Source: a virus (Duplodnaviria > Caudoviricetes). From it: 64,000 bases of DNA. How positions within the stretch are numbered: the first letter of the stretch is position 1; every line of letters begins with the position of its first letter. Below the pieces are notes generated by a model. That model had not been told where the DNA came from. It saw nothing but the letters and a program-made list of their open reading frames with translations, and ran no database searches. The DNA lies in IMG/VR virus record IMGVR_UViG_3300033068_000352, positions 1,191-65,190 of that record; one strand, given 5' to 3'. The translations under genes and the position numbers were made by a program. Positions 1-58,161 of this stretch are shown here, piece by piece.

Positions 1-1081
1 TGTGGCCCACATCCAGAATGGCGTTAGTCCAACCATCCTCGAACTTCTCCGTCAGCGGCCCCTTAGTGGAGCGCTGGAACTTCAGGTATGCCACAAGCCC
101 CGGCAGGGTAATGAAACCCTGATAATCGCCGTCATGGTCGAGAGCGTAGAAGTTGTCCGCTGCCGCGTTCTCCTGATAATCCTGCCAAATCTGGTCCTCA
201 TCGAAGAAACCGTCGTCAGCCAGCGCAACATCCGGCACCCACGTAGACGTGTAGACACCATTCGGACCCTTCACGTACTCGTAGTGCCCACCCTTGGGGG
301 CTGTGGTGCTAATAGCCTTGTTGGCCATTGTGCGCCACGAATTAGAGGTGTACCGACCCATCCAGTAGTCATCGTTCCATTCGAGCTTAGGCCCCATTGA
401 CACTTGACTGTCAGTTACCATCAGATAGTCACCGTCATCCAGAATCTGGAAGGTGTCCGGGTAGGAGCCGATCCACTTAAGGTTCAGGCGGTACAGCGCC
501 TTAGCCAGAATCTCATCCGTGGATGCGAACACGATGGAACCGTCCAGCAGACGCGCGATGGAAACGGGGGAGTGGTCCAGTCGGGACAGGTGCAGGGTGT
601 TGCCCGTTCGGTCGTCCAGCCATGCCACAGCCGCGTAGCCTGCGATCTTCTCCGTGCCCTCAACACCGAACTCCTCCAGTACAGCGGGGATCACCGCCGT
701 GTCAACATCGGCAAGCCCCTGCCCGCCCTTAAGGTCGAAACGAAGCTCCATGTCATTAGAGATATGACCGTTGTGAACCAGTGTGATGTGCTTCTGCACA
801 GACTGGACCGGGTGGTTGTTCTCGTTGAACTTCGGAAGCCCCTGAGTGGCGAACCGGTTGTGACCGATGACCGTATCCGCCTTGCGCGGCATCGTCTTCA
901 TCGAAAGCTGGCTGCCGGGAACCGGAGACTTGAACATCCCCGTCTTGCCCTCACGGGTGGCGAAAGCCCAGCCACTGGAATCAGTACCTCGAACCTCGCC
1001 GTAGGTCGCCAGCGCATTTGCCAGCGAACGACTATTGATCTTGCTGCCCTCAGACAGACTAAAACCCCAAATAGCACACAT
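1..1081 (-). CDS. Class II (Ntn) glutamine amidotransferase domain protein, runs off the left edge
   Basis: Absent from the ORF track because there is no stop in the window. Manual translation from ATG 1081 (GGAGG RBS): MCAIWGF...RGTDSSG...GHNRFATQG...NNHP...LVHNGHISND, with catalytic Cys2 and the class II motifs. Confidence 0.9.
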   Translation of the reverse strand, partial: MCAIWGFSLSEGSKINSRSLANALATYGEVRGTDSSGWAFATREGKTGMFKSPVPGSQLSMKTMPRKADTVIGHNRFATQGLPKFNENNHPVQSVQKHITLVHNGHISNDMELRFDLKGGQGLADVDTAVIPAVLEEFGVEGTEKIAGYAAVAWLDDRTGNTLHLSRLDHSPVSIARLLDGSIVFASTDEILAKALYRLNLKWIGSYPDTFQILDDGDYLMVTDSQVSMGPKLEWNDDYWMGRYTSNSWRTMANKAISTTAPKGGHYEYVKGPNGVYTSTWVPDVALADDGFFDEDQIWQDYQENAAADNFYALDHDGDYQGFITLPGLVAYLKFQRSTKGPLTEKFEDGWTNAILDVGH

Positions 1082-1203
1082 ATTATTACCTCCTATATTA
1101 AGCGGGACTTGGTTGCCCCTATTTGTTCGCAATGCGAAAGATTAGGTGGTGAGTTATACTCCCTGCTCACCATCAGGTTCGTGCCCTAGCGCCCCACCGT
1201 ACG

Positions 1204-1232
1204 AGTCTACACGGCTTACATGTTTTGGACAA
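1204..1232 (-). promoter_or_regulatory. SigA-type promoter upstream of the amidotransferase gene
   Basis: TTGTCC-N17-TAGACT on the minus strand, intergenic. Confidence 0.7.
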
Positions 1233-1248
1233 GGGGGCTAACTACAGA

Positions 1249-1398
1249 CTAATCCGCCATTGGCCGGGTGTCAACATTCCAGCGTTCGACCATGGTGTTT
1301 TTCAGACTCTCCTTGTCGGAAACTGCCGCCGTTTCATTGTCGTAAATTCCGTAGATATATCCATCTCCATTATTCGACTTAAGAACCCAGACCTGCAT
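1249..1398 (-). CDS. Hypothetical protein, 49 aa
   Basis: MQVWVLKSNNGDGYIYGIYDNE...; ATG overlaps the amidoligase stop (TGATG). Confidence 0.7.
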   Translation of the reverse strand: MQVWVLKSNNGDGYIYGIYDNETAAVSDKESLKNTMVERWNVDTRPMAD

Positions 1399-3047
1399 CA
1401 GATTTCACCAGCCACACCCACCAGCGAACCGGCGAGAACGTCGTTCTTGAAATCGTAGTTGATGCTCACGTTCTGCTCGATGATACCGTCAATGTGCGAC
1501 TGGTCGATAGTTGACATAAGAATGTCAACGCTCTCAGCGCCCTTGCGGATGAACAGGGACTGAAGATCATTGAAGCTCTTCACCTTGTTCCACTCGGAGG
1601 GCTTCACACCCGCCTTGGCCACGTTCACAAGCTCACGGCAGATGTGCGCCCACTTAATGAGGTACTCGTAGTCGTACACGGGTCCCATGGCGCGGAACTC
1701 CACCGTGCCGTGATCAGACAGCGCCTGAAGGTTCAGGGTCACGTACCGGTCGCCGGTGTAGAGGCTTTCCTTATCGAACAGCGTTCCTATGTCCTTCGAA
1801 AGCTCCTTGACGGACTTCACAATAGCCACATTGTCCTGAGCGGGGCGTGTACGGCAGTACTGGCGCTTAGTACGCTGGTAGCTAGCCTCAAGAAGAGGTT
1901 CGATAACAGAGTATCCGTACACCAGCGAGCCAATGTGCTTTACCGTCAAATCTGACGCGTCCACATGAACGTGAACACCAGCAGAGTTGTTCTGCGGCTG
2001 CTCGTTCACCTGAACCAGAAGCTTCTCCAGCCCCTTCGAATGGTAAGAATGCAGAATGGGCGACACGAACTCAGCAGTGTCCCCATAGCCATCACTGTCA
2101 CCATTGTTTGCACGGTACGTCATGCATTCTACGCACGAATCGTAGCTGGTGAAGTTAGGATTATTAATCCAGTGACCGTCTCCTGAGTTTTCGTCATCCT
2201 CAACCCAGATGCGGTCACGGTGGCGGTTCTCATCATCATGCGGAAGGTAGGCGCTACGCAAACTACCATCGCCCTTCTTACCCCAACCAGCGGGACGCTC
2301 GCAACCGCGAGCACCAGCAACCTCAACCTCAATGCCCCAGTTGCGGGAAGAAACAAGGCCGTGACCTGCAAGGGTGAACTTGTTAATGATGCGCTCATCC
2401 GTAGAACGCTCGGCAGCGATCCGCTTGTAGAACGCCACCACGTCCCCCTGACCGGAGCGAACAGGCTTTGACACTCGATTGTCAACCATGGCTCGGTCCT
2501 TCATCTGCTGGCGAATGGTGTTGACATAATTTCGCTTGAAAGTTCGTGCTGCCTCGGTGGCCTGTGCGATTGCGATGTGACCAACATAGCGCTCCTTACC
2601 ATGACCGTTAACTCGCACCTTCTTGAGGCCGTCAAGAGCGGACTCGAAGAAATGTCGGTCAGTGCGAAAACGGATCGCGCCCTTGACCACAAAAACTTCA
2701 ACCCACTTCGGAAGCGCTGCCTTCAAGGCGGACACTGCCTCAGCCACGCTAACCCCAGTCTCCTCGGTGGTGTAAATTTTGGTAACACGGATGCCATGGG
2801 GGGATGGGACGTTAACGTCATAATTGTAATCCCACTCTCCATCACCCTCAAGACTCACATACATGTAACGCCCGTACTGCCCAAAAGTGTTGGCGAAATT
2901 CTCAAAATTGCGATCAGTGTAGTATCCCAGCCACGTATTGATACAACTACGCATCGCCCTCTCCCATAACGTGGGAATAGCGCCATTGCGTCGAGCATAA
3001 TCCTCAATCAGGGCCTCAGTGAAGCTTTCACGAGTGTAAACTGTCAT
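1398..3047 (-). CDS. Putative amidoligase (COOH-NH2 ligase, glutamine-synthetase-like fold)
   Basis: Motifs WGIEVEV, AEFVSPIL, SAGVHVHV, RYVTLNLQAL..HGTVEFR. Start set at ATG 3047 (GAGGAGG RBS); the frame stays open to 3245. Confidence 0.88.
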   Translation of the reverse strand: MTVYTRESFTEALIEDYARRNGAIPTLWERAMRSCINTWLGYYTDRNFENFANTFGQYGRYMYVSLEGDGEWDYNYDVNVPSPHGIRVTKIYTTEETGVSVAEAVSALKAALPKWVEVFVVKGAIRFRTDRHFFESALDGLKKVRVNGHGKERYVGHIAIAQATEAARTFKRNYVNTIRQQMKDRAMVDNRVSKPVRSGQGDVVAFYKRIAAERSTDERIINKFTLAGHGLVSSRNWGIEVEVAGARGCERPAGWGKKGDGSLRSAYLPHDDENRHRDRIWVEDDENSGDGHWINNPNFTSYDSCVECMTYRANNGDSDGYGDTAEFVSPILHSYHSKGLEKLLVQVNEQPQNNSAGVHVHVDASDLTVKHIGSLVYGYSVIEPLLEASYQRTKRQYCRTRPAQDNVAIVKSVKELSKDIGTLFDKESLYTGDRYVTLNLQALSDHGTVEFRAMGPVYDYEYLIKWAHICRELVNVAKAGVKPSEWNKVKSFNDLQSLFIRKGAESVDILMSTIDQSHIDGIIEQNVSINYDFKNDVLAGSLVGVAGEI

Positions 3048-3231
3048 AACATCCTCCTCTACTGCTTGTGCCGGGAATACCGGTGTTGGATCAATCCAAT
3101 CAATGTTATCTATTGAAAATGTCATATTTTCTATACCATGCAAGGCTCTAATTGAAGCGCTGTAAACGTTAGTGAGGTGGCTAACCAGAGAAGTGTCGAG
3201 AGCCTCAGCGTCCCAGATTAGGTGACTAGTC

Positions 3232-3945
3232 TCAGGCATCTTCACCCTCGAAGATCACGCGATATTTGTCGGCCTGATTTGCCTGCTTGGTAAGGGCAGT
3301 GATACTTGCGCTGGAACTGCCAGACCACCAAATCCCGAACTGCTCAAGGCTCTTAACCCAAACGCGATTATCGATCTGGATGACCGCATTCTTCTTCGTC
3401 GGCAGCACAATCGGCTCTGGGATGTACTCCACCGTGGCACCCGGAATCTCCCGGATATTGTCAAGGTAGAAATTTCCAGCGGGAGACTTTACGTACTCAA
3501 TATCATGATACTGGTTAGTACTAATCTCGGCCTCAAAAGAAACCTTCACCCGCTTGGTCTTCGCAGGCTCATCCACCACAAGCTCAACGTTGTAATCCTC
3601 GATGCCGTTGGGGCTTCCCCACTTATTGACAAAATGCTTACCAGCATCAAACCATGTGTTGTTCACCACGAACTCCGAACCAATGGGGTGTAATGCCTTG
3701 GTCCGGTCACCGGAAGCCTTGTGGCTCACAACGCGAACCCTATCCCCTACTTTAAAATCCGGGATCAGTTCGACGTGACGGGCATGAATACCAAGACCAT
3801 AAGTTGCCTCATCCTTGACAACCTGATTGTTGGCACTGCCCCACGTCTTGGCAACCGTGAACACCTTCCCAATCGGGTATTGCGCCGCGTTGACCGCTTT
3901 CTGGGTGACCTTAACCCGGTCGCCCACCTTGAATGTGGTACTCAT
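3232..3945 (-). CDS. Protein with two KOW/SH3-like repeats and a C-terminal LPT..AVI module
   Basis: FKVGDRVKV and FKVGDRVRV repeats; strong RBS. Confidence 0.75.
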   Translation of the reverse strand: MSTTFKVGDRVKVTQKAVNAAQYPIGKVFTVAKTWGSANNQVVKDEATYGLGIHARHVELIPDFKVGDRVRVVSHKASGDRTKALHPIGSEFVVNNTWFDAGKHFVNKWGSPNGIEDYNVELVVDEPAKTKRVKVSFEAEISTNQYHDIEYVKSPAGNFYLDNIREIPGATVEYIPEPIVLPTKKNAVIQIDNRVWVKSLEQFGIWWSGSSSASITALTKQANQADKYRVIFEGEDA

Positions 3946-4092
3946 ATTTCCTCCTCTTAGAATCGATTGACACTAATAAATCAATTGGGAATAGTGTGCC
4001 AGAGTAAATTCAACAATCACTCACCATCAGCAACTCACTTGTTGTCAACTATTCTCAAACTTACAGCAGGCACCCGGCCCCTATCACGTATC

Positions 4093-4121
4093 ACTCTACA
4101 CGGGCTTTATGTTTCTTACTA
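4093..4121 (-). promoter_or_regulatory. Promoter resembling the one at 1204-1232
   Basis: Shares AAACAT..AAGCC(C)GTGTAGA.T..TACG; -10 TAGAGT. Confidence 0.55.
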
Positions 4122-4316
4122 GTATTTCGTTACCTGCAAGCCCAACTCATCAAAAGTATCGAGACTGAGATTTGTTGGGAAAACTTGCCCAGACTAGGCG
4201 TTTCGCAGGAGTGACCTGCGCCCTAGAAATCCGGAACTACCGGAACCAACTGGGACTTCTGCAAGCGGTACCCCCGAAAATCCGGTATCCCGGCATAATT
4301 AGATCGGACTTGCATT

Positions 4317-4392
4317 GTGCGCGGACAGGATTCGAACCTGTAACAACATTGGGTTTATTTCCCCAATCGCTTTTCCATTTGCGTACCGCACT
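4317..4392 (-). ncRNA. tRNA-like element with an aberrant 8-nt anticodon loop
   Basis: T arm ACAGG-TTCGAAT-CCTGT, D arm CGC-AAATGGAAAA-GCG, stem TTGGG/CCCAA with loop GAAATAAA, 6-bp acceptor stem. Confidence 0.7.
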
Positions 4393-4490
4393 ACCGAGTC
4401 GGAAAGATCAGCGCACCCCTGAACCCGTCTTTCCCCTACAGCGCCGCAACCTCGCGGCCTTGTTTCTTTACCCATCACCCCTGATGGAAA

Positions 4491-4616
4491 CTACCACAGT
4501 CGAGCATACGTCTGCCCATCCTTATGCACACCCATAACAGTATGGGCATTCTTGAACGCCGTCAGGTGCTTGGCCGAAACCCGGAACACACCGCTCTCCG
4601 TAATTACCGTGAACAT
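4491..4616 (-). CDS. Hypothetical protein, 41 aa
   Basis: MFTVITESGVFRVSAKHL...; directly follows the upstream stop. Confidence 0.6.
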   Translation of the reverse strand: MFTVITESGVFRVSAKHLTAFKNAHTVMGVHKDGQTYARLW

Positions 4617-4811
4617 TTAAATAGTCACCTTCCACATCTTCTCATAGTACTCACTAGCCTCCAGCGGGTCAACCCCATAAAAGGTAACCGGGTAGCGCTC
4701 CACTACATCCTTATTGCGGAAAACCTTCGCCACAACATTACCACGGGAGGCCAGCCTGTCAACACGCACAATCGACTCGATCTGGCGCTTATCACCCTCA
4801 CGCAGACTCAA
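4617..4811 (-). CDS. Hypothetical protein
   Basis: ORF track; overlapping start/stop chain. Confidence 0.7.
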   Translation of the reverse strand: MSLREGDKRQIESIVRVDRLASRGNVVAKVFRNKDVVERYPVTFYGVDPLEASEYYEKMWKVTI

Positions 4812-5110
4812 AAATTGTACCCCGCTTCCTCTAATAGTGCCTTAATGTTCTCCACAACATCCCCACCTTCTGGGGTGGACTTGTAAACATCGTAAATGCT
4901 GTCCAGCGTCACCTTCGGGGCGGGAGTCGAGGGTACTACCTCCAGTTCATCGAAAAAGAAGTAAAGACTATTTAATGTGTTGTCCCGCAAAACACTGGCT
5001 CCATCCTGATTAATGCCAGTCACAACACCCGTCTGCCCGTCAAAACGATGATAAGCCTGTTCGGCACTAGCAGTATTGATCCGGACCTTATCGCCCACGT
5101 TGACACTCAT
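4808..5110 (-). CDS. KOW/SH3-like domain protein
   Basis: VNVGDKVRI...GQTGVV motif. Confidence 0.7.
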   Translation of the reverse strand: MSVNVGDKVRINTASAEQAYHRFDGQTGVVTGINQDGASVLRDNTLNSLYFFFDELEVVPSTPAPKVTLDSIYDVYKSTPEGGDVVENIKALLEEAGYNF

Positions 5111-5478
5111 CGGTCAGCACCTTCATACAAAACGGTGAAACCGTTCTCATCGGCGCTCTCCTGAATCCGAGCATCGTCCCAAGTTGTAAAAGTGTTCTTC
5201 CGCGCCCATCTTCCGTCATTGCCACGGAAAACAACCCTCCGATTACCGCTATTGAATTGGATCACAGCCCCCGGCTTGGTGGGAATCTTAGGCTTAGCCG
5301 CTTCCCGCGACGACTCAACCTCCGCGATGTGCTCATTCAGGGCGTCACGCAGTTGCAGGACCTCACCCCACCTATATGCGGCAAAGGACCTATCTCCACC
5401 ATGATCCAACAGTACGTCATCACCATAGCTAGAAACCGAAGCCTGCCATGGTTCATCTGAAACAATTTGCTTATACAT
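5107..5478 (-). CDS. Hypothetical protein with a C-terminal IPT.PGAVI module
   Basis: C-terminus resembles those of 3232-3945 and 5970-6666. Confidence 0.75.
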   Translation of the reverse strand: MYKQIVSDEPWQASVSSYGDDVLLDHGGDRSFAAYRWGEVLQLRDALNEHIAEVESSREAAKPKIPTKPGAVIQFNSGNRRVVFRGNDGRWARKNTFTTWDDARIQESADENGFTVLYEGADR

Positions 5479-5480
5479 TC

Positions 5481-5606
5481 TTAACCTCCCGGTTCGATTC
5501 TTTTGAAAACCTTATCAGCAATCCACGTTATCAGCAAGGCTGACGGCACAATAAAAGCCGCCAGCCCCGCCAGAATCACGAAGACTGCAAGCAGCCAGTT
5601 CAACAT
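5481..5606 (-). CDS. Small membrane protein, 41 aa
   Basis: MLNWLLAVFVILAGLAAFIVPSALLITWIADKV...; TGATG overlap. Confidence 0.65.
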   Translation of the reverse strand: MLNWLLAVFVILAGLAAFIVPSALLITWIADKVFKRIEPGG

Positions 5607-5977
5607 CAGGCGTCGAACTTGCCGGACTCGATATCCGCCAACAGCTTCAACAGGACACGATTGACCGCCTTACTCGCCCTACTGACCCCTACCGTATCCT
5701 CAGCGGCGTAAACATCGTGAACCTTAGACTTGATTGCAGTTGCAACCTTATCCGCGTCCAGACGCTTTGACGCTGTAGTGTCAACTTCCTCGGGGATAAT
5801 AACCTCGACCTCCTTCAGGGCTACTGGAAGGCCATTCAGCATGAACATATTACCAGCGCCATACAACGTCTTCTGAAGGGTGCCGACATAATCCTTCAAT
5901 CGAACAATCTGGGTGTCACCAACAAACTTCACCGTGTCACCAACCTGAGGAACACGCTTACCCCCCGCCTTAAACAT
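5606..5977 (-). CDS. KOW/SH3-like domain protein
   Basis: Start MFKAGG at 5977; PQVGDTVKFVG motif. Confidence 0.7.
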   Translation of the reverse strand: MFKAGGKRVPQVGDTVKFVGDTQIVRLKDYVGTLQKTLYGAGNMFMLNGLPVALKEVEVIIPEEVDTTASKRLDADKVATAIKSKVHDVYAAEDTVGVSRASKAVNRVLLKLLADIESGKFDA

Positions 5978-6666
5978 TGACACCCTCCGAAAGGACAGTG
6001 AACTTGTAATTGGAAAGGAAAGCGTTGTCCACACTTGTTCCAGTGTAAGATGAACTCCACCTCTTCTCACTAGTGCGCGTCCACACATAGCCTACCTGAT
6101 CGGTGTCCACATGGACCACCGCACCAATACCTGTAGGAAGCGCCGGGGCAACAACCTCTAGCTTCCAGCCGTCCTGCTTGCGCAAGTAGTTCTCATCAGT
6201 AGCACCCTCGGGACGGATATTGAAGTAAGCGCTGCTTTCTTTATAAAACTCACCTACCAGCACCGACTCGCCCAGAGTCGCTTTGACCTTATCGCCAACC
6301 TTCACACTGTCCTCCAATTCAATCTCATTCTCAAAAACGAGCCTCCAGTTGCTGTTATTCTTGTCCGGCTTGTAGTGGTAACCATCTGTGAGCACTCTCG
6401 CAATAACACCCGGTCCAGTTGCGCTATAGGGGCCACGAATAACCTTGATCCGGTCACCCACCTTGAACTTGCGCTCAGGAGCCAGTTCCAAACGCTTAGA
6501 AAACACGCCCATTGGGTAGACCAGTTCCTCCGAGGTAAAGCCAGCACCAGACTTATAATCAGTGGCCTCATGCACTTCAGACACCGTGAACTCGTGCCCC
6601 CTTGCTCCAACTGCCATAATCCTCGATCAGACGAACCCTGTCGCCCACGTTAAAAGTCTTGATCAT
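5970..6666 (-). pseudogene. Three-repeat KOW/SH3-like protein split by a +1 frameshift in a G5 tract
   Basis: ATG 6666 (GAGGAG RBS) gives MIKTFNVGDRVRLIEDYGSWSK. Removing one base from the run at 6597-6601 joins it to GHEFTV... of ORF 5970-6617. Confidence 0.7.
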
Positions 6667-6975: not shown

Positions 6976-7536
6976 TCAGACACCCCTAATCTCGGCAATA
7001 TAGTCAGTAAGCCACATCACATCTGTAACGTGACCACCGTCAGCCGTATACATCTTTGCGGCCTCCTCAAGTGCCTCGGCCTTGACCTCGCGCTCGTCGC
7101 GCAGCGGGCCGTCCGGGGCGGTGAGTCGCGAAGCCCAGTTGAGATACATCGGCTTGTAGGTGCTGCCCTCGTGGTCAAGCTGGGCGGGTGATGCGTTCTG
7201 CATCGCCTCGGCCAGCGCCTCGACGTTCACGACCGGCTTGCCCGCCTCACGGATGACGCCAGAGGCGAGGATCGCGTCGGCTTGCTGCTGGGTGTACCCG
7301 CGCAGGTATTCGGGTGCCGATTCCCACTTAGGGACGAATCCCGCGTAGTCCTTTGTCGCGTGCTCGTAGAGAACCCTCGCCAGCGCCTCCCGTTCGGCTT
7401 CGAGCTTCTGCGCGAGGGTGTCGGCCACGCCACGGTCGTAGCCAGTGCGTGCTCCTGACAGCCATGCCTGTATTCCCGGTGCAGCACCGGAGTCCCCCGG
7501 GTACGCGGCCTTAGCTGCCTCACTATGATCAGTCAT
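6976..7536 (-). CDS. Hypothetical protein with a GC-rich core
   Basis: ORF track; RBS; KAEALEEAA motif. Confidence 0.75.
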   Translation of the reverse strand: MTDHSEAAKAAYPGDSGAAPGIQAWLSGARTGYDRGVADTLAQKLEAEREALARVLYEHATKDYAGFVPKWESAPEYLRGYTQQQADAILASGVIREAGKPVVNVEALAEAMQNASPAQLDHEGSTYKPMYLNWASRLTAPDGPLRDEREVKAEALEEAAKMYTADGGHVTDVMWLTDYIAEIRGV

Positions 7537-13413: not shown

Positions 13414-14058
13414 TCAGCGCACAGCGAGCACGACAGGGAGGTATCCACCGTCGCACAGATTACAGACCAGCGTGGACGCCATAACCTCTTCGTACCATTT
13501 GATCGGCAAGGTTACCGGCTGGTCACAGTCACACGCAACCCGCACCGTCGTTTTCTTGCTGACCTTGGGCTTGTCCGGCTTCTTGAACGTCACCAGCACA
13601 GCCTCAAGAGCGGCCAGCGTGTCCGCGTACTCCACTTTCGCGTGCTCCTGCAAACCCGTAGTGCGGTGCCCGATCTTGTCATCCTCCACCACCACAAGGC
13701 CCATGGCCGTTGCCACGTCCCGGAACTTGCCGTTATGGAAACGGCCCTGACGCGAGGTGTCTTTCACCCCTGTAGCGTGAGCCAGCGCGTGCGCCGTCTC
13801 ATGGATGAGAGTAGACAGGACCTGCTCAGCACCCTTGTCGAAGCTCTGAGGGTTCATGGCGATTTCATGGCGGGCCGAACCCGTGTGCTCGCCAGCGGTG
13901 TCAGTCCACGAGTCCGCAAGGAACGTACCGTGAGCACCCTTGTGGGGCGCGATGATCACCGCAAGAGCGGCAGGCACGTTCGGGTTCAGCGACTGGATAA
14001 CACGCAGGGCGTCATCCAAAGCGGACTGAATCGTAGTGGTGGGGGTTGCGTTAGTCAT
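13414..14058 (-). CDS. SprT-like zinc metalloprotease domain protein
   Basis: TLIHETAH zincin motif, HNGKFRDVA, C-terminal CxC...CxxC. Confidence 0.85.
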   Translation of the reverse strand: MTNATPTTTIQSALDDALRVIQSLNPNVPAALAVIIAPHKGAHGTFLADSWTDTAGEHTGSARHEIAMNPQSFDKGAEQVLSTLIHETAHALAHATGVKDTSRQGRFHNGKFRDVATAMGLVVVEDDKIGHRTTGLQEHAKVEYADTLAALEAVLVTFKKPDKPKVSKKTTVRVACDCDQPVTLPIKWYEEVMASTLVCNLCDGGYLPVVLAVR

Positions 14059-16351: not shown

Positions 16352-16735
16352 TTACATTGTGACTAGCAGGGGTTATCGTAAGGTTCCGCTGTGGTTTGCT
16401 AAGTTGTGGGTGTGGGCTGGCGGTTTTGGACTTAAGGGGCCTTCCGATGGATAGAGGCATTCAGGACGTGCCGATTGTGCATTTCGGCTCCCCGGTGGGC
16501 ACGCAGTACCGTGAGGACAAGGCGGCGGAGGCTCTGGTGAGCTTGAGAGCCGCTGGTTGGATTGAGAAGGAAGATTGATGGGTAAGGATATTTTTATTGC
16601 CGTGAAAACCAACTGGGGCAACATTGTGGCCGTTCTGGACCATGATGCTAAGCAGGGCTATTTCCAGCAGTACGGAGAATTTGACAGCATTAACGGTGCA
16701 ATGCGTATTGCTAAGATTTTGAACAAGGAGACTGT

Positions 16736-44594: not shown

Positions 44595-44779
44595 TCCGCC
44601 GCCTCTACTCGAAAACTGGTTCCACAATCTGGACAATAGTAATCATCACAGCAACCCTCAGAGCAACCTCCATCACTCAGCGCATTCGGATGCGAGTAGT
44701 GCTTTCCTTGCTCAATCACAATACCGGGGAAACATTCAATGCGTTCCATTGGAAACTTCTTTCTTGAACCTATCGTCAA
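44591..44779 (-). CDS. Small zinc-binding protein
   Basis: CSEGCCDDYYCPDCG. Confidence 0.65.
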   Translation of the reverse strand: MTIGSRKKFPMERIECFPGIVIEQGKHYSHPNALSDGGCSEGCCDDYYCPDCGTSFRVEAAD

Positions 44780-45788
44780 ACTGAGGATTTTCCTCTAAAT
44801 ACGTGAGAAGTGCGAAGGAATGCCAAGCCACAGCCGCAAGGTGATGACTGTTAAGCTCTTCATCAATCTCCTCCCCGTCCCACCACTGAGTGGCATGACG
44901 CATCATGGCAGCATATGACTTGGAAAATTCGTACCCCTTGCGCCATTGATTGTCATCGTATTTCAAGGCCCCAGCGCCGTAGTGCTCGGCTAGCTTGGTC
45001 AGCGCGCCAACAGGGATCAGATCAAACCGGGCCTGCTTGACGCCCTTCTCTGCGCCCGTAGAAGAAACTGAGCGAACCTCACCGCTAAACTTGGGAGCCT
45101 CACGCGTGGCACTAATGGAGCCAAATCCATCATCGACACCCGGCTTGGACTCTGGAATTTTACCCCCCTCCCACGCTTCTCGATTGATCCAAATGCCACG
45201 CTTTACAATCTTAGGGGAATTCTTCGCCAGATAATCAGTAAGCGTTACGATAGACGCCCACTCTTTCCACCGAAAAAGCCGAGTAAGTCCAGTCTTGTAA
45301 CGGTTGTACGGCTGGTTAAAAAGAATCTGAGTCCACTGCGGATCGTAGTCGCCCTTGATATCAGGCTTGTCATCGATCAGGATATCACCGCGCACGGCAG
45401 TCTTGTCCTTGGTAATCACCACGCGATCACCCCAGCCCTTACCGATAACCTCCTCAGCCCATGTGATTTTATCACTGGCACACGTAGGGTTTGTATTCCA
45501 CGGTGAGGATACGAGGGTAACCGTATGACCATCGGCCAGCATCTCGTTTAGTGCTTCGATTGCACCATCAATAGGTTCTAGTTCTGAATAGAAACCGGGA
45601 ATGTCCATAATATCATTGATGATTCCCGACTCTTCTGGAGTACACCCACCATGCAAGTTGAAGCCAACACGATCAGGCTTGCGCTTGATGTTGGCGCTGA
45701 GAGCCTTGTACCACTCATCGTCAAGATAGCTGTCAAAGTTTGCCGACCAGTCTGCTACTGTATCGTCCATATCCACTAGGATGTGCAT
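44736..45788 (-). CDS. HAD 5'(3')-deoxyribonucleotidase fused to a dATP/dGTP diphosphohydrolase-like (DUF5664) domain
   Basis: N-terminal LVDMDDTVAD...LIDDK; C-terminal RFDLIP...GALKYDDNQWRKG...HLAAVAW. Confidence 0.85.
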   Translation of the reverse strand: MHILVDMDDTVADWSANFDSYLDDEWYKALSANIKRKPDRVGFNLHGGCTPEESGIINDIMDIPGFYSELEPIDGAIEALNEMLADGHTVTLVSSPWNTNPTCASDKITWAEEVIGKGWGDRVVITKDKTAVRGDILIDDKPDIKGDYDPQWTQILFNQPYNRYKTGLTRLFRWKEWASIVTLTDYLAKNSPKIVKRGIWINREAWEGGKIPESKPGVDDGFGSISATREAPKFSGEVRSVSSTGAEKGVKQARFDLIPVGALTKLAEHYGAGALKYDDNQWRKGYEFSKSYAAMMRHATQWWDGEEIDEELNSHHLAAVAWHSFALLTYLEENPQFDDRFKKEVSNGTH

Positions 45789-47338: not shown

Positions 47339-48652
47339 TCAAGCAAGACTAGCCTCCTCAGCCTCAATGTCCACAGCCTCAGCATCCAGCATGGCAGTCT
47401 CGTGACCGAGGAAGATCGGAGACTTCGCCTTCAACAGGTACACGCCCTGAGGCCCATCGTATCGCACTACGACACCTTCGTCAACGGTCTTTATGTTAGA
47501 CAAGCGTACAGGTGTATCAGTGAAACTGCCAGCCTCGTTGTCCGACCAGTCATCATAGAACCGGCTGTCGATGAAGCTATCAACCACAAAATCCTCGTGA
47601 CGGACGCGAGTAAACTCGGGCACATGCTTCAGCCCAGTCTCGAATGCGAACTCCTTAACCTGATTCCAACTGAGGTCAACCGTGCGGCCCGCCTCAGTGA
47701 CTACAGCAACGCGGTAGATGTAAAGCTCACTCTGCCCCGGCTCCAGATCATACGTGTAATCCTTCTGGATCGGGGTCTGATCGCTCGTCCACCCGACAAG
47801 CTCACCGTAGACGATGAAGTTGTCCGGGATAAGGTCATGCAGCTTCTTGCCCCACTCGCTCCACAGGTCGGTCAGGTAGAAGTGGTTCTTACCCTCCTCC
47901 AGTTCACCGTCGATGGACTTGACCACCATCCGTGAACCCGCCACCAACTGCGTCTGCTTATCAGCGACACGAACACCCAGCTTGCGTGCGATCTTCTCCA
48001 GCCACGTCAAATCCTGAGTGACCGGAACCTTGCCCCAACGCCCGGAGGTACCATGCAGCTTCTGAGTAATGATCACTTCTGCATCAGAGGGAATCTTGTC
48101 CGAGTTGCGCCAGTAGTTGTCCGTGTCGATGTGGACAGGGAACACCTTCAGGTCAACCCGCTTGATCTTCGCGGACGGGCCACGGTTCACACCGGGTTCC
48201 TTGAGTACATACTTGCGGCAAATCTCATGGTCACCGATCTTGTCAAAGGTGTCACCCGGAGCAGGGTGAAAACCAGCCCAATCCTTGACGGGAACGAGTT
48301 CGTAGAGATAATTGAGCGCACTCAGCGGAATGAAGAACGCATTGCTCGCGTGCCCACGGAAACGCAGAGCCTTCACCCTACGATTGTCCTCGAAGTAACC
48401 CTTCTCATTCGGGTCAGCGTTGCGGTCGGTGTGACGATGAAGATTATTCATCTTTGCGAATTCCTCAGACAACTGAGTCTCAGCAGGGAAGAACAGACCG
48501 ATATCGCCCACCTTCACGGACTTGTCCACGATGGCCTGAAGCCCGAAGACGCTCAACCCTTGCACATTGTCGCAATTCTCCAACTCGCGCAGAGCCTTAA
48601 CCTCCACGACGACTGCCGCGTAATTCTCGTTGATCGGTTTATCTAGCTTCAA
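47339..48652 (-). CDS. RNA ligase (Rnl2-like) with an N-terminal OB-like domain
   Basis: TQKLHGTS, VYGEL, DEGVVVR, LKAKS ligase motifs. Confidence 0.9.
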   Translation of the reverse strand: MKLDKPINENYAAVVVEVKALRELENCDNVQGLSVFGLQAIVDKSVKVGDIGLFFPAETQLSEEFAKMNNLHRHTDRNADPNEKGYFEDNRRVKALRFRGHASNAFFIPLSALNYLYELVPVKDWAGFHPAPGDTFDKIGDHEICRKYVLKEPGVNRGPSAKIKRVDLKVFPVHIDTDNYWRNSDKIPSDAEVIITQKLHGTSGRWGKVPVTQDLTWLEKIARKLGVRVADKQTQLVAGSRMVVKSIDGELEEGKNHFYLTDLWSEWGKKLHDLIPDNFIVYGELVGWTSDQTPIQKDYTYDLEPGQSELYIYRVAVVTEAGRTVDLSWNQVKEFAFETGLKHVPEFTRVRHEDFVVDSFIDSRFYDDWSDNEAGSFTDTPVRLSNIKTVDEGVVVRYDGPQGVYLLKAKSPIFLGHETAMLDAEAVDIEAEEASLA

Positions 48653-48819
48653 TCTTCCGCCTCCTCAATCCAATAGTTCCCGCTGTCGCGCACGGTGATT
48701 ACCTTGTCTGGCTCATCTTCAATCTGAAGCTCCATATAGTTGCCACCGATTTCATTCACTGTAGCATAAAAAGTTACCTTGACGCGAGTTCCTTCTTCGA
48801 CATTTCCATCAATGTTCAC
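48649..48819 (-). CDS. Hypothetical protein, 56 aa
   Basis: VNIDGNVEEGTRVKVTF..., found manually. Confidence 0.55.
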   Translation of the reverse strand: MNIDGNVEEGTRVKVTFYATVNEIGGNYMELQIEDEPDKVITVRDSGNYWIEEAED

Positions 48820-49006
48820 TTATAATCTCTTTCATGCTATAGGACGGTCCACCAGTCTGCATGAACAAACGCCAAGAGTCAACACCCAACACTCCACCCG
48901 GCTTCAGAACCTCAGGACGGCTCACCTTCTGGGTGGCGATATGGAACGCCTCATCCCAATTGTCTGCAAGAATCTCAATTTCCAGACGATACAAATGCTT
49001 ACTCAT
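48809..49006 (-). CDS. Hypothetical protein
   Basis: ORF track. Confidence 0.65.
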   Translation of the reverse strand: MSKHLYRLEIEILADNWDEAFHIATQKVSRPEVLKPGGVLGVDSWRLFMQTGGPSYSMKEIISEH

Positions 49007-49116
49007 ACTTCTCCTCCAACTTATTAAACCTCTTCAGCAGCTTCTTCGCGCTGATCTTCTTGCCCAGCTTCGCCTTGTTCTGGAACCAGTACCGCAGTTC
49101 CCACAGGATTTGCTCC

Positions 49117-49863
49117 CTATCCACGATCCATCATCCTCCACTCAGTCTCGTAAATTCCATGCAGCATCTTATTGATACCAGTCACGTCAGGTTCGTCGGG
49201 TAACGTAGACAGGTTAATATCTGCCCGCAGATTCTTCTCCAGCTTATACGACCAATCGAGCATTTCCTGCTTGTCAATCTCACCGTTACGAATCTGCAAC
49301 AATTCATTGACGTTCTGAGGAATCATGGGGAGGCTAATCCTCTGAGTATTCATAACCTCGATGCCCTGAATTCCCAACCGTAGCATATGATACGCGAACT
49401 TGGTATCGTAACCGTGCTTATGCACAAGCTCAGGGCGGTTGGTCTTCTTATTGCGAGTGCCCAGCAGTGCATTGCGCTGGGAAATCATATACCCAAGGAA
49501 ACGCTCACCGACCTGCTTAGATAGAAACATCCTCTTATTCATCAGCAGGTTCAATCCACTGGCCGTAAGCACCTCGTACTTGTCCTCCTGCCCGAACAGA
49601 ACGGTAAGCACTGTAGGGTTTCCCTTGGCTGCGAGCGCCGCCCATTTACGCAGAGGATACAGAACCGTGTCGTGATCCACCGCAGTAGAGCGTGTACCCT
49701 TGACGGCAGACTTGCGCTCCTGAGTGTCCATGTGCAGGATACCAGTGACATACTCTTTAGGCTCCACGAACACGCCCATGAAATCGCTGTCAGAATCGAC
49801 AGTGTTGGTGCCGTGAGCGCGAGAACCGTACTCCATCTTTAGGATTATTCTTTCGTCACTCAA
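49117..49863 (-). CDS. Pol-beta-superfamily nucleotidyltransferase
   Basis: GSRAHGTNTVDSDSDFMG, KGNP..L..L, YDTKFAYH.LRL. Confidence 0.88.
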   Translation of the reverse strand: MSDERIILKMEYGSRAHGTNTVDSDSDFMGVFVEPKEYVTGILHMDTQERKSAVKGTRSTAVDHDTVLYPLRKWAALAAKGNPTVLTVLFGQEDKYEVLTASGLNLLMNKRMFLSKQVGERFLGYMISQRNALLGTRNKKTNRPELVHKHGYDTKFAYHMLRLGIQGIEVMNTQRISLPMIPQNVNELLQIRNGEIDKQEMLDWSYKLEKNLRADINLSTLPDEPDVTGINKMLHGIYETEWRMMDRG

Positions 49864-50024
49864 CCCATTCCTCCACTTTCTCCGGGTAAAACTGCATCAT
49901 CCAGTCAACGAAACCGTCAGCCTCTTGGCCCATTTCATCTTTTAACCAATCGACACATGCCGTCAAGTCCCAGTCGGATTCGGACAGTAGCGTGTGATAA
50001 AGGCTATCGAAAACTCTAGGCGTG

Positions 50025-50255
50025 TTAATCATTCTTTGTCACCGTATAGCCCTTCCCTCGCATGAATTCTGCCACAATCTCCAACTCGACGTTATGTTCA
50101 ATCTCCATCATCTTCTGTATAGTGTCACGCATAACCTCTTGAATGTCAAGGTTAAACTTATAGCCCGATACGTCTACGTTCCAACGGAATTTTGGCTTTA
50201 CCGGTTCCAGCGAAACCCAACCCTCATCATCCTTAAAAAGAAACTTAGAAGTCAC
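50025..50255 (-). CDS. Hypothetical protein
   Basis: ORF track. Confidence 0.6.
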   Translation of the reverse strand: MTSKFLFKDDEGWVSLEPVKPKFRWNVDVSGYKFNLDIQEVMRDTIQKMMEIEHNVELEIVAEFMRGKGYTVTKND

Positions 50256-51147
50256 CCGGGGCCACCTGTAGACACTTCAAACCCTTAGCCCGCCACATGT
50301 TCACAACCCGGTCACGGTCATCCAGAATGAAATCCACGTTGTACCGGCCAGCAATGTGCTTCTCAAACAATTCGTTCTTCACGATGGCATCATTGCGAGT
50401 GTCGCCAGCCGAACGCATGTACAGCGCCTCATAAAAGTTGAACCTATTGGCATGTAGCCACTTATCTGTAGCCTCTCGGTAGGCATCATCACGGCCAGAG
50501 AGCACAATCACATCAGCGTTCTCCGACTGCGCCCACCAGAAAGACAGACGACCCAGAACCTCATCGAAACGGTCAAGGTGATACTTCGTGTCATCGTAGG
50601 GACCGCGCCTATCGTCCATGTGCGCCAACGTGCCATCGATATCCACGATGATGCAGTGCGGTAGCCCCGGCGTGTAAACGTAAGGCTCAAACGCCGTTGA
50701 CGCTTTAGCGTCAATAGTGGGGATAGGCGGCATCTTGCCGTTGGGGGTGTAGCGGTCGAAAAATGACTTGATTACCTTGTAACCGACACGGCGATCACGC
50801 CCAAGATCACGAGTGACGGCATCCTCGTAGGTGATCGGGAAGTCCTTGAACTCCACCTCCGCACCAAACTCAGCCGCCAGCTTCAATGTCTTCTTCACAT
50901 AGCTCGCCGCAAGGTTAGTGTTATCAAGCACCACGTCTTTACCGGCCTTCAGTAAAGCCCGCAGGCTTGCATCCTGCACCTTCGTGACAGCAAGCTCATC
51001 GACACCCCAATACTTGCCGAACAACTGGTAACGGATATCATCACGGTTGACCCGCGCACGAGTCTCCGGAGACTCAGAAACCCACAGTAGGGCGTCGGTT
51101 GTCTTACCGGAGGCCGGAATGCCGCGCTGAATTCTAAGCTTACTCAT
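50245..51147 (-). CDS. pseT: Polynucleotide 5'-kinase/3'-phosphatase (T4 PseT-like)
   Basis: GIPASGKTT and NRDDIR kinase motifs; DIDGT and DDR phosphatase motifs; 300 aa. Confidence 0.93.
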   Translation of the reverse strand: MSKLRIQRGIPASGKTTDALLWVSESPETRARVNRDDIRYQLFGKYWGVDELAVTKVQDASLRALLKAGKDVVLDNTNLAASYVKKTLKLAAEFGAEVEFKDFPITYEDAVTRDLGRDRRVGYKVIKSFFDRYTPNGKMPPIPTIDAKASTAFEPYVYTPGLPHCIIVDIDGTLAHMDDRRGPYDDTKYHLDRFDEVLGRLSFWWAQSENADVIVLSGRDDAYREATDKWLHANRFNFYEALYMRSAGDTRNDAIVKNELFEKHIAGRYNVDFILDDRDRVVNMWRAKGLKCLQVAPGDF

Positions 51148-51293
51148 CTTTACTCCTCTTATCCAGTGCAACTGCCAACAAACCGGCACCCAGCGAGACA
51201 ATTGCTGCACGAACTTCATCTGTCGCAATATATGCGATCAGAAATATCACTGCAACAAACAGCAGAAAGCCCTCTGCGATCCACCGAAGAATC

Positions 51294-51476
51294 TTACTCA
51301 TGTACTTCTCTCCCCTCAACGAATGTCATAGTCTGCACGCTATCATCCTTCGATAGTGCAATGCTAGCCTCAGCCTCCATCAACATCCACATATCTGTGG
51401 TACTGGGAAGTCGGCCAAACTCTTTTTTGAATGCTAGCACAAGTTCCGTCCAGCGCTTCTCATTGTACTTGTCCAT
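51294..51476 (-). CDS. Hypothetical protein
   Basis: Start MDKYNE. Confidence 0.6.
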   Translation of the reverse strand: MDKYNEKRWTELVLAFKKEFGRLPSTTDMWMLMEAEASIALSKDDSVQTMTFVEGREVHE

Positions 51477-51994
51477 TACTGCTCCATCACCCACTTCTCG
51501 AATGCCGGGTTACACAGAACTGCTGGGGAGCGCTTGGCCCGCATCAACTCTACAGCCTCAGCACCAGTCGAAACCTCACCAGACAGTAGGAGAGCTTTAG
51601 CAACCGCCAGTGATGAACGGTTAAGCCCAGCCCGACAATGAACTAGCACACGGCCAGAATCCCGGCACAGGTTAATCCACTGCGCGAGAAGATCGACCTG
51701 CTCGAACGTCTGATCGATAGAGTCATTCATGCTGACCACGACATTAGACCGGAGGCTGTGCTTCACGTCATAGCTCTTACGAGCATACACGTTCACTACA
51801 TGCTTGAATGTATCGGGAAGCAGTAGCCCAGTCTCAACGCCACCCTGCCAAAGATTGGGAGCCACTTCGGTGATGAATGGCATATCCAGCGCGATATCAC
51901 CGTGCATTGTGACGCCAGTGATGCGCAAGGTGAATGGATTGCGCGGATTCCCTCCCTGTGCCTTCAAATCAAATGCTGTCGGATCGCTGTTCAT
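51476..51994 (-). CDS. Cys-based dual-specificity phosphatase
   Basis: VLVHCRAGLNRS (HCx5R). Confidence 0.9.
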   Translation of the reverse strand: MNSDPTAFDLKAQGGNPRNPFTLRITGVTMHGDIALDMPFITEVAPNLWQGGVETGLLLPDTFKHVVNVYARKSYDVKHSLRSNVVVSMNDSIDQTFEQVDLLAQWINLCRDSGRVLVHCRAGLNRSSLAVAKALLLSGEVSTGAEAVELMRAKRSPAVLCNPAFEKWVMEQ

Positions 51995-54724: not shown

Positions 54725-54798
54725 AAAACCATACTCCCCTTAGTGTTGAACTACCAGTTTACATCTTCACATCGGTTGCGTATGTTCTGTCCTTGTTG

Positions 54799-54873
54799 TC
54801 GCGCCCGTCAGACTCGAACTGACACTGTACCGATTTTGAGTCGGTTGCCTCCTGCCATTTGGGCTAGAGCGCG
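54799..54873 (-). tRNA. trnL: tRNA-Leu(CAA) with a short variable loop
   Basis: CGCGCTC/GGGCGCG acceptor; ACCGA-CTCAAAA-TCGGT; 5-nt variable region; A73. Confidence 0.88.
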
Positions 54874-57317: not shown

Positions 57318-58161
57318 CCACCTTAGCTTCTCTCTTCTTCTCTTTAGACTTGCGAGCGGCTTGCGCCTTCAACACTGCACGATAGCCCAAGAACTCTTGG
57401 AACCATTCGTCAGTATCCGTGACCTCGATCAGATCATGCTTTCCTTCAGACTTCTTGTTCCCGAACTCATCGAACTCGGGTGCCCTCAGATGAATGAGCA
57501 AAACCCTGTCGAACTGTGGTACCGGCAACTCCTCCCACGCACCGTCTGCAAGTTTGTGCATGAGAACATCAGCATTAATCAGTGCAGAAATCTGCATGTG
57601 ATGACCGGGCCAAGTGTTCTTCGAAGTCTTCAGGTCGATGAACGCAACGAAGCTTTCACCGGTCACCTTGTGGGTGAAACGCCACAAGCCGTCAGCCGTA
57701 CCAGCGTACTCATGTGTGAGACTCCACATTGTGAACTCCGAAAGGATAGGTTCGATATCCCACTCCTCGTTCAGCTTACGCCACTCCTCGACCATGAGCA
57801 ACTGTTCGTCGTCAAGCTCGGGGATCATCCAGCTACCAGTGTGCTCGGCCTCAACATAGTCGTGAACTCCGGTACCGACAAAAGCGCGGGTGTCCCGCTG
57901 GTCACGCCAACGGTACTTCGCCACATTAATCCCACGCTCCACACTCATTGACAAAAGTTTGTCAACATTGCGTACTGCCCAGTCAACCGTCAAGTTCACC
58001 GCCCATTGGATGAGCGCTGATTTGTCTTCCAGCTTCAGCACAGTAGTCACTGAGGGGGCGAGAAGCGGCTTGCCTTCAGCGTCCGTTCTGAACGGATGCT
58101 TGTATTGCCTGCCTTTGCCCTCACCCTCCCCGGTGTACTGGCTTAGCTCTGGCCGACTCAC
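57301..58161 (-). CDS. PD-(D/E)xK (Cas4-like) exonuclease
   Basis: PSVTTVL, GTGVH, E...YAGTADG, DLKTS, QISA. Confidence 0.88.
   Translation of the reverse strand: MSRPELSQYTGEGEGKGRQYKHPFRTDAEGKPLLAPSVTTVLKLEDKSALIQWAVNLTVDWAVRNVDKLLSMSVERGINVAKYRWRDQRDTRAFVGTGVHDYVEAEHTGSWMIPELDDEQLLMVEEWRKLNEEWDIEPILSEFTMWSLTHEYAGTADGLWRFTHKVTGESFVAFIDLKTSKNTWPGHHMQISALINADVLMHKLADGAWEELPVPQFDRVLLIHLRAPEFDEFGNKKSEGKHDLIEVTDTDEWFQEFLGYRAVLKAQAARKSKEKKREAKVGGFGA

Follow-up and report, generated by a model that had tools for sequence, protein, structure and literature searches.

An amidoligase encoded beside a class II glutamine amidotransferase (GAT-II) is a long-described phage system known from phiEco32, LUZ24, Marvin, and Arthrobacter phages, and judged by its sequence, the two-gene pair at the left end of the 64,000-nucleotide (nt) stretch of viral DNA studied here (the window; IMG/VR record IMGVR_UViG_3300033068_000352) is an instance of it. 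The phiEco32/LUZ24/PaP3-type amidoligase cassette was described by Iyer, Abhiman, Burroughs & Aravind in 2009, cited here through PMC10580990 and PMC3890496, and as PMC10580990 summarizes that computational work, the cassette was predicted to modify the cell wall and prevent superinfection. The cell-wall option offered by the initial annotation of the window repeats this prediction as quoted there. The same paper quotes a suggestion of "secondary metabolites" for the pair of mycobacteriophage Marvin, and a role in nitrogen metabolism was proposed for the pair of a Planctomycetes phage (PMC10945688). Pairs also occur in OM43, Pseudoalteromonas, Poseidoniales, and Planctomycetes viruses (PMC10580990 and PMC10945688 among the sources), and when a LUZ24-like phage was evolved on a biofilm, both independent lines gained missense changes in both genes (PMC11450229), an indirect hint at function. 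The initial annotation took it as established that such pairs move ammonia from glutamine onto an ATP-activated carboxylate, but for this module the published views are computational or speculative. The reading that we favor, with a probability of roughly 0.45, is an amidoligase of two subunits, one from each gene, that depends on glutamine and is produced early in infection.

In the phiEco32/LUZ24/PaP3-type cassette, known also from UFV-P2, the Amidoligase_2 gene stands immediately ahead of a Cys2 GAT-II gene in the early region, with the replicative helicase/primase just downstream, and the present pair shares this order and early location. The LUZ24 cassette comprises a COOH-NH2 ligase (gp16), the amidoligase (gp18), the amidotransferase (gp19), a RimK-like ATP-grasp protein (gp21), and a gamma-glutamyl cyclotransferase (gp22), followed by the primase/helicase. 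Searches of the present phage returned no match to GGACT (control valid) and none to PF14395 (COOH-NH2_lig), for which the control was silent too, and no ATP-grasp domain was found among the 34 proteins of the phage that were scanned against Pfam. The pair here looks like the minimal, two-gene form of the cassette. Arthrobacter phage Wheelbite (Laroyevirus) likewise encodes matching families as gp93 and gp94, in the same ligase-then-amidotransferase order and on one strand, without other cassette enzymes, and Marvin is cited as a further example of a minimal pair. The Wheelbite pair sits at the genome end, and Wheelbite is only distantly related to the present phage, with capsid and primase about 30% identical. 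Moreover, its two proteins are short (337 and 295 amino acids [aa]), are about 25 to 27% identical to ours over the cores, and lack the His/Cys insert and E-[VI] tail of the ligase and the C-terminal domain of the amidotransferase described below. LUZ24 gp19 has a C-terminal extension of its own, of 280 aa, that is not homologous to that domain.

The source contig is a 65,190-bp IMG/VR phage sequence with a completeness rating of 100%, and the window spans contig bases 1191 to 65190. Its capsid and primase/polymerase proteins are about 30 to 35% identical to counterparts in Microbacterium, Arthrobacter (Laroyevirus), Clavibacter, and Streptomyces phages, and it encodes a WhiB-domain protein; because of these two features, we assign it by sequence to an uncultured actinophage. 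No close sequenced relative is apparent, and a megablast search with window positions 1 to 3945 against 50,697 phage records gave no match. Structural genes occupy the plus strand at about 18 to 42 kb, and the remaining genes are all on the minus strand. When the map is drawn as a circle, the ligase and amidotransferase genes sit within one long leftward early/replication arm. The features of the pair, all on the minus strand, are as follows.

3239..1398, minus: amidoligase, 613 aa (P0001), from PF12224 and an AlphaFold model
Amidoligase residues 1-158, minus: variable and poorly modelled
Amidoligase residues 160-250, minus: confidently modelled small alpha/beta domain and long helix
Amidoligase residues 297-577, minus: carboxylate-amine ligase core like that of glutamine synthetase (GS)
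Amidoligase residues 578-613, minus: helical extension and tail
1692..2339, minus: catalytic motifs of the ligase, from a 40-sequence alignment
2112..2240, minus: subfamily-specific insert between GDGSL and EFVSP, with H334, H340, and C369-x2-C372
1401..1415, minus: conserved C-terminal tail of the ligase, ...V-A-G-E-I-COOH, from homologue ends
1398..1249, minus: 49-aa open reading frame (ORF); its ATG shares bases with the ligase stop codon (TGATG)
1089..1094, minus: Shine-Dalgarno sequence AGGAGG, 7 nt 5' of the amidotransferase ATG at 1081
1..1081, minus: class II N-terminal nucleophile (Ntn) glutamine amidotransferase, residues 1-360 of 406 (P0069), from PF13522 and a structural model
Amidotransferase layout: Ntn domain, residues 1-235; disordered linker, 240-305; conserved C-terminal domain, 307-406
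1..161, minus: window part of the amidotransferase C-terminal domain (FY..DHDGDY ... WVN.F.D.G ... SWV ... IRDG)

The amidotransferase gene overruns the window edge by 139 nt, so it is missing from the list of closed ORFs; the initial annotation had nevertheless recognized a class II amidotransferase with Cys at position 2 there, and correctly. The complete gene runs from 2271 to 1051 of the contig (L001) and encodes 406 aa, the last 46 of which are encoded left of the window (L001 1051-1190). Because the AGGAGG sequence fixes the start at 1081, Cys is residue 2 of the protein (MCAIWGF...). The protein matches PF13522 at 3.1e-21 and PF13537 at 2e-10, and its GATase_6 and GATase_7 scores far exceed that for GATase_4, the YafJ/EgtC-type family. 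In the structural model (m3e3b4559470c; predicted local distance difference test [pLDDT] score, 87), the Ntn domain has the alpha-beta-beta-alpha fold and superimposes on the GlmS glutaminase domain (1xff) with a Z score of 25.9, a root mean square deviation (rmsd) of 2.3 A, and 30% identity over 212 aligned residues, and Foldseek returned the GlmS domain at 1e-14. PurF, GFAT, AsnB, and EgtC follow among the fold matches, EgtC at 17% identity and a Z score of 20.6. Residues C2, R31, R76, N104, G105, and D127 align with GlmS C1, R26, R73, N98, G99, and D123, and these glutamine-binding and oxyanion residues together with M1-C2 are invariant or nearly so in 40 homologues. More than 250 homologues were found in metagenomes. 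In a few relatives the start is unusual: an ATC codon precedes the catalytic Cys in three of them, with no in-frame ATG, GTG, or TTG upstream in L008 (11334) and L012 (12209) and with a 9-residue leader (MSRKQGRLI) ahead of the Cys in L010 (11637-11663), which by sequence suggests either initiation at ATC or a PurF-like propeptide. The L005 gene starts with TTG, and its public gene call begins too late and loses the Cys.

The second enzyme was called a GS-fold carboxylate-amine ligase from the sequence, and profile, fold, and motifs all bear this out. From its GTG, the ORF spans 3245..1398, but the ATG at 3239, which gives a 613-aa protein beginning MPETSH..., is the likely start because homologues likewise begin MP.... 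The protein matches PF12224 (Amidoligase_2) with an E value of 5.4e-13 and 49.8 bits against a curated cut-off of 22, matches PHROG amidoligase families at 1e-21 and 1e-19, and is the one copy of PF12224 on the whole contig; a phmmer search of PDB sequences returned only noise. The AlphaFold model (m7ffcd8b26d1d) is confident at residues 160-250 and 270-590, with a pLDDT above 90 in the core. By VIA-align, the core matches the YbdK-like structure 1tt4 (Z score, 10.9; rmsd, 3.6; 195 residues aligned), followed by Dop (9cku; 9.7), GS (8pvg; 9.6), plant glutamate-cysteine ligase (GCL) (2gwc; 9.2), and PafA (4bjr; 8.2), and below the GS/GCS-type chains the list drops to unrelated matches at a Z score of about 5. 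Six motifs mark the catalytic core, namely, WGIEVE (residues 301-306), GDGSL (323-327), AEFVSP (389-394), GVHVHV (421-426), RY..N (498-503), and TVEFR (512-516). Across 40 aligned sequences, whose mean column identity is 24%, the following residues of these motifs never vary: E304, E306, D324, E390, H423, H425, R498, E514, and R516. From the shared fold, we infer that the Glu, His, and Arg residues are the counterparts of the side chains with which glutamine synthetase binds metal and ATP. The initial annotation had made absence of catalytic residues from alignments a ground for rejection, and they are present for both enzymes in 40 homologues each. Both enzymes look catalytically competent by sequence and model.

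Outside the catalytic cores, both proteins carry parts of their own. The ligase insert contains H340, nearly invariant in the 40-sequence alignment, and a CxxC that is present in most long homologues, and the bigger inserts of some relatives gain an extra C-x(4-6)-H. It is probably a small lid beside the active site, and its His and Cys residues suggest that it binds metal. The ligase tail ends in E-[VI] in most long homologues (GGEI, GGEV, TEV, AEV, LEV), and one has GQI; Gly-Gly precedes the terminal Glu-Val/Ile in the closest relatives, and the stretch before the tail is highly variable. The tail is modelled at low confidence. Residues 150-290 have a weak fold match resembling the small domain of aminotransferases (Z score, about 5), from which we claim no fold, and an ESM Atlas search with this region returned no feature matches and only structural rows with TM scores below 0.45. 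The C-terminal domain of the amidotransferase, about 100 aa, is conserved in 40 homologues and modelled at a pLDDT of about 90; its sole fold match is weak (ERH-like; Z score, 4.7), we again claim no fold, and ESM Atlas likewise gave no feature matches and structural rows with TM scores below 0.45. Among 1.84 billion representatives, this domain occurred only on such amidotransferases or as stand-alone pieces of 131 to 162 aa. Long ligase homologues (500 to 756 aa) numbered 67 in metagenomes. We therefore define, from sequence and models, what appears to be a new long actinophage subfamily, characterized by the N-terminal extension, His/Cys insert, and E-[VI] tail of the ligase and by the C-terminal domain of the amidotransferase. 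By alignment, the catalytic cores are common across phage lineages and the appendages are lineage specific, a pattern that would fit docking or target-selection modules. The idea that the E-[VI] tail simply goes together with the amidotransferase C-terminal domain was considered and rejected: partners such as P0025/P0115 and P0063/P0096 have the domain without the tail, with partnership there resting only on the equal length of the longest contig.

Linkage of the two genes is strict. The ligase is followed by the amidotransferase on the same strand in 10 of 10 related loci (L004, L005, and L007 to L014), at identities of 33 to 48% and with gaps between the genes of 52 to 1441 nt. An alignment-based scan of IMG/VR gave 9 loci, and a single-protein scan gave none. 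Many homologues of both proteins sit on phage-sized contigs of 55 to 65 kb, and the best matches of both proteins are all on phage-sized contigs, none being a close cellular homologue. The phages with the pair include those of Pseudomonas, Escherichia, Vibrio, Bacillus, and Porphyromonas as well as marine and actinobacterial ones. Conserved neighbors are small unknown genes and a helicase: a ResIII/SNF2 helicase lies a few kilobases downstream of the pair in 7 of the 10 related loci and does so here once the contig is circularized.

How the two proteins would work together can be sketched from their folds. The Ntn subunit, its Cys made N terminal by removal of Met, would hydrolyze L-glutamine through a gamma-glutamyl thioester and release ammonia, as GlmS, PurF, and AsnB do. 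The separate GS-fold subunit would use ATP and metal ions to turn a carboxylate into an acyl-phosphate, and ammonia would attack the acyl-phosphate to give a carboxamide. The target would be a Glu-type carboxyl on a larger molecule, such as a peptide, a protein, or a cell-wall stem peptide, rather than an amino acid bound to tRNA. Such a carboxyl seems the most likely because the characterized enzymes of the fold activate the gamma-carboxyl of Glu and because amidation of free Glu would be futile. Docking of the subunits in a complex or choice of the target could fall to the parts peculiar to this lineage, namely, the His/Cys insert and E-[VI] tail on the ligase side and the private C-terminal domain on the amidotransferase side. 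The analysis shows the gene identities, the folds, the intact catalytic residues, and the strict linkage; complex formation, ammonia as the transferred group, and the class of substrate are what we infer.

Enzymes of known function supply parallels to each half. The Ntn subunit shares with GlmS, PurF, and AsnB the fold, the N-terminal Cys, and the Arg/Asn-Gly/Asp glutamine site, at 27 to 30% identity to the GlmS domain, but those enzymes carry a fused synthase domain. Here that role presumably falls to the GS-fold protein, which has a gene of its own, an arrangement without characterized precedent. The ligase shares its core fold (Z scores, 8 to 11) and conserved acidic, His, and Arg motifs with YbdK/GCS2, glutamine synthetase, GCL, and PafA/Dop, but it lacks the N-terminal beta-grasp domain of GS and has instead its own N-terminal domain, insert, and tail. 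In mycobacterial ergothioneine synthesis, EgtA, a ligase of the GS fold, is likewise paired with EgtC, a class II Ntn amidohydrolase that is not fused to another domain, except that EgtC takes off glutamate instead of supplying ammonia. MurT/GatD carries out two-subunit, glutamine-dependent amidation of cell-wall Glu (PMC3267633), but MurT has the Mur-ligase fold and GatD is a class I triad amidotransferase, such that the system is analogous, not homologous, to the pair.

Whether the Ntn protein supplies ammonia or cleaves an amide is the central choice. The amidotransferase reading is favored because in sequence, fold, and profile the Ntn domain lies distinctly nearer to GlmS, PurF, and AsnB than it does to EgtC, because the extra domain lies C terminal to the Ntn domain, the place of the synthase domain in class II enzymes, and because the 1:1 linkage is strict, with adjacency also in Wheelbite and LUZ24. 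The intact catalytic residues of both enzymes, the GS/GCS/YbdK/Dop fold of the ligase core, and the missense changes in the evolved LUZ24-like lines also speak for it. Several points weigh against it. The glutamine-binding residues would suit the gamma-glutamyl part of a larger amide equally well, such that they do not separate a glutaminase from a gamma-glutamyl amidohydrolase; our literature search found no enzymology for any member of the pair; one or two genes intervene within the pair in L007 and L012; and a search for fusions of GATase to amidoligase found one 738-aa protein, without ligase similarity, which is a weak negative. Moreover, the Pfam annotation of PF12224, which we take to describe the partner as a "glutamine amidotransferase-like thiol peptidase" with an AIG2 cyclotransferase as the alternative, favors a ligase paired with a hydrolase. 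Such a pair, a writer and an eraser or two steps of a biosynthesis, is possible, though we hold it with less confidence. The GS-fold enzyme would link an amine of the target to the gamma-carboxyl of a Glu that is either free or terminal in a peptide, with chemistry as in PafA, gamma-glutamylcysteine ligase, and gamma-glutamyl-polyamine synthetases, and the Ntn protein would cleave the gamma-glutamyl amide, as EgtC does after EgtA and Dop does opposite PafA, without supplying ammonia. Indeed, the characterized relatives from the fold search all activate the gamma-carboxyl of Glu, and most use amines bigger than ammonia (GCL, Dop/PafA, gamma-glutamylmethylamide synthetase, and 1-naphthylamine GS). 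EgtC resembles the Ntn domain strongly in structure (Z score, 20.6), and the RimK-like ATP-grasp protein and gamma-glutamyl cyclotransferase of the LUZ24 cassette amount to gamma-glutamyl peptide chemistry. The closeness of the Ntn domain to GlmS, PurF, and AsnB in sequence and profile argues the other way, however, as do the empty GGACT and COOH-NH2_lig searches (control valid for the former and silent for the latter), and strict 1:1 linkage fits a heteromeric enzyme as well. Alternatively, the pair might make or recycle some soluble amide, for example, a gamma-glutamyl amine or the amidated form of a cofactor or metabolite, and thereby tune host nitrogen or glutamine or detoxify a host compound. 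Actinobacterial GS-like enzymes gamma-glutamylate polyamines, which would be in keeping with such auxiliary metabolism, but the large, lineage-specific noncatalytic domains and the putative metal-binding insert look more like macromolecule recognition, and the best matches of either protein include no close cellular homologue. The metabolic roles suggested for Marvin, as quoted in PMC10580990, and for the Planctomycetes phage (PMC10945688) have no enzymology behind them, and we regard this alternative as unlikely.

Two further explanations draw on other genes of the phage. Tailoring of a modified thymine or other phage DNA base was brought to mind by viral contigs in which such genes stand beside 5-HMUDK and aGPT-Pplase (PMC8989533; Lee et al. 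2021), and a protein of this phage in which an NT5C deoxynucleotidase is fused to a diphosphohydrolase N-terminal domain may alter nucleotide pools. The whole contig, however, encodes no thymidylate-synthase-type hydroxymethylase (PF00303; control valid) and no PurZ, and the 30 screened neighbors and larger genes include no kinase or pyrophosphorylase of the pathway, 5-HMUDK and aGPT-Pplase profiles not having been searched by name. A search of the whole contig for Tet_JBP also gave no match, with a control that was silent too. The conserved neighbors of the pair are small unknown genes and a helicase, and the annotated genes of the contig have ordinary replication, recombination, and RNA-repair functions. 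We consider DNA hypermodification very unlikely. The initial annotation proposed as an alternative that the pair replaces GatCAB, turning Glu-tRNAGln and Asp-tRNAAsn on phage tRNAs into Gln-tRNAGln and Asn-tRNAAsn, and pointed to U1-A72 tRNA-Asn and tRNA-Gln genes. ARAGORN and Rfam find six tRNA genes, namely, Trp, Met, Gln(CUG), Pro, His, and Leu(CAA), the gene adjoining tRNA-Pro being tRNA-His by its GUG anticodon. The U1-A72 tRNA-Gln is real, but the tRNA-Asn is absent, and U1-A72 is an ordinary feature of bacterial tRNA-Gln. The phage also invests in tRNA and RNA repair (PNKP, RNA ligase, and RlaP), and all three tRNA-bearing relatives examined have tRNA-Gln and/or tRNA-Asn (G001, Asn and Trp; G003, 14 tRNAs including Asn and Gln; G005, 7 including Gln), but actinophages without the pair, such as L5 and D29, also commonly carry tRNAs for Gln, Asn, and Trp. 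Moreover, PF12224 is the only match of the ligase at an E value of <=0.1, with no GatB/GatE or YqeY domain; no GatB or GatE appears among the 21 PDB chains with a Z score of >=5, which is weak evidence; and the glutaminase is of the Ntn type, not that of GatA (amidase signature) or GatD (asparaginase type). Distribution is the strongest argument: five essentially complete genomes, those of Wheelbite and the uncultured relatives G002, G004, G006, and G007 (97 to 100% complete), carry the pair and no tRNA gene at all, and phages of Pseudomonas, Vibrio, Bacillus, and Porphyromonas have the module too. We conclude that the pair is independent of phage tRNAs, and that it acts in transamidation is highly improbable. 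Of the initial annotation, then, the gene identities stand, the tRNA alternative is not supported, and the chemistry taken as established is a proposal.

What the long actinophage form modifies is open to a more specific proposal, which we offer as a doubtful one. The enzyme could be protein directed, like PafA/Dop, amidating or ligating the gamma-carboxyl of a Glu at or near a protein C terminus with nitrogen from glutamine. Early in infection, the His/Cys insert and the amidotransferase C-terminal domain would pick out a protein of the host or of the phage, and the ...G-E-[VI]-COOH tail of the ligase (G-Q-I in one relative) could be a self-substrate, a pseudo-substrate gate, or a GlmS-like C-terminal tail that couples the active sites. 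The amidoligase/GAT-II pair is among the most widespread phage enzyme modules without a known substrate, and one solved member would annotate thousands of phage genes and might reveal a new phage route for modifying the host envelope or host proteins. The present analysis removes tRNA transamidation as a hypothesis. The compact actinophage subfamily, with its two genes and clear accessory domains, lends itself reasonably well to biochemistry, since it apparently comes without further cassette enzymes to complicate matters, and the conserved ligase tail and private amidotransferase domain offer handles for mutagenesis. The pair of this phage nonetheless makes the question of function no more testable than many other instances do.

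Between the two enzymes, the 49-aa ORF is present on the minus strand as first annotated (1398..1249). It has no match in Pfam, PHROG, or PADLOC and none by tblastn against the related loci, and its likeness to a 42-aa ORF at the equivalent place in L004 amounts to 7 residues. As a conserved third component it was rejected, since the relatives examined have no counterpart; it probably does not belong to the module, and its status as a gene is without support. Terminator-like sites are absent between the genes, promoter-like sites are near background, and a PADLOC run on four proteins gave no match. Reading beyond the left edge, as had been advised, supplied the rest of the amidotransferase and four small ORFs that extend to the contig end. 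Two of the four are paralogues with a common WLKKHDAEIR, and another, of 94 aa, bears CxxC pairs (L001 59-790); L004, the closest relative, has three of the four downstream of its own pair, in the same order and at 50 to 62% identity. On the other side of the pair, three minus-strand proteins of 237, 123, and 215 aa (3232-6617) share a C-terminal module of about 60 aa that ends in (F/Y)xV(L/I)xEG, and several proteins with this module bear repeated (F/K)VGD(R/K)V motifs that resemble SH3/KOW. The gene for the 237-aa protein overlaps the ligase start, and a member of the family lies directly upstream of the ligase in L004, L005, and L008.

Elsewhere in the window, a 186-aa ORF without family matches (6976-7536) lies at a local G+C peak (7001-7500; 0.65, versus about 0.51 around it), and a protein with a SprT-like metalloprotease domain is encoded at 13414-14058 on the minus strand. 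The WhiB domain is the C-terminal part of a 231-aa protein (58852-59547, minus) and follows about 160 residues without assignment. The fusion of an NT5C-type 5'-deoxynucleotidase to a dATP/dGTP diphosphohydrolase N-terminal domain (PF18909; 4.6e-29) lies at 44736-45788 on the minus strand and may reshape the nucleotide pool, and the PF18909 part has a 71% identical copy in the relative L010. The isolated tRNA-Leu(CAA) gene (54798-54873, minus) adjoins the primase gene, apart from the main tRNA cluster, and in G003 (57546-57617) and G005 (16445-16518) the isolated tRNA is tRNA-Gln(CUG), about 5 to 6 kb downstream of the amidoligase. Finally, a complete RNA-repair set occupies 47339-51994 on the minus strand, where an RNA ligase (47339-48652), an RlaP nucleotidyltransferase (49117-49863), and a polynucleotide kinase-phosphatase (50245-51228) are joined by a dual-specificity phosphatase (51476-51994); this set and the six tRNA genes suggest a countermeasure to anticodon nucleases of the host.

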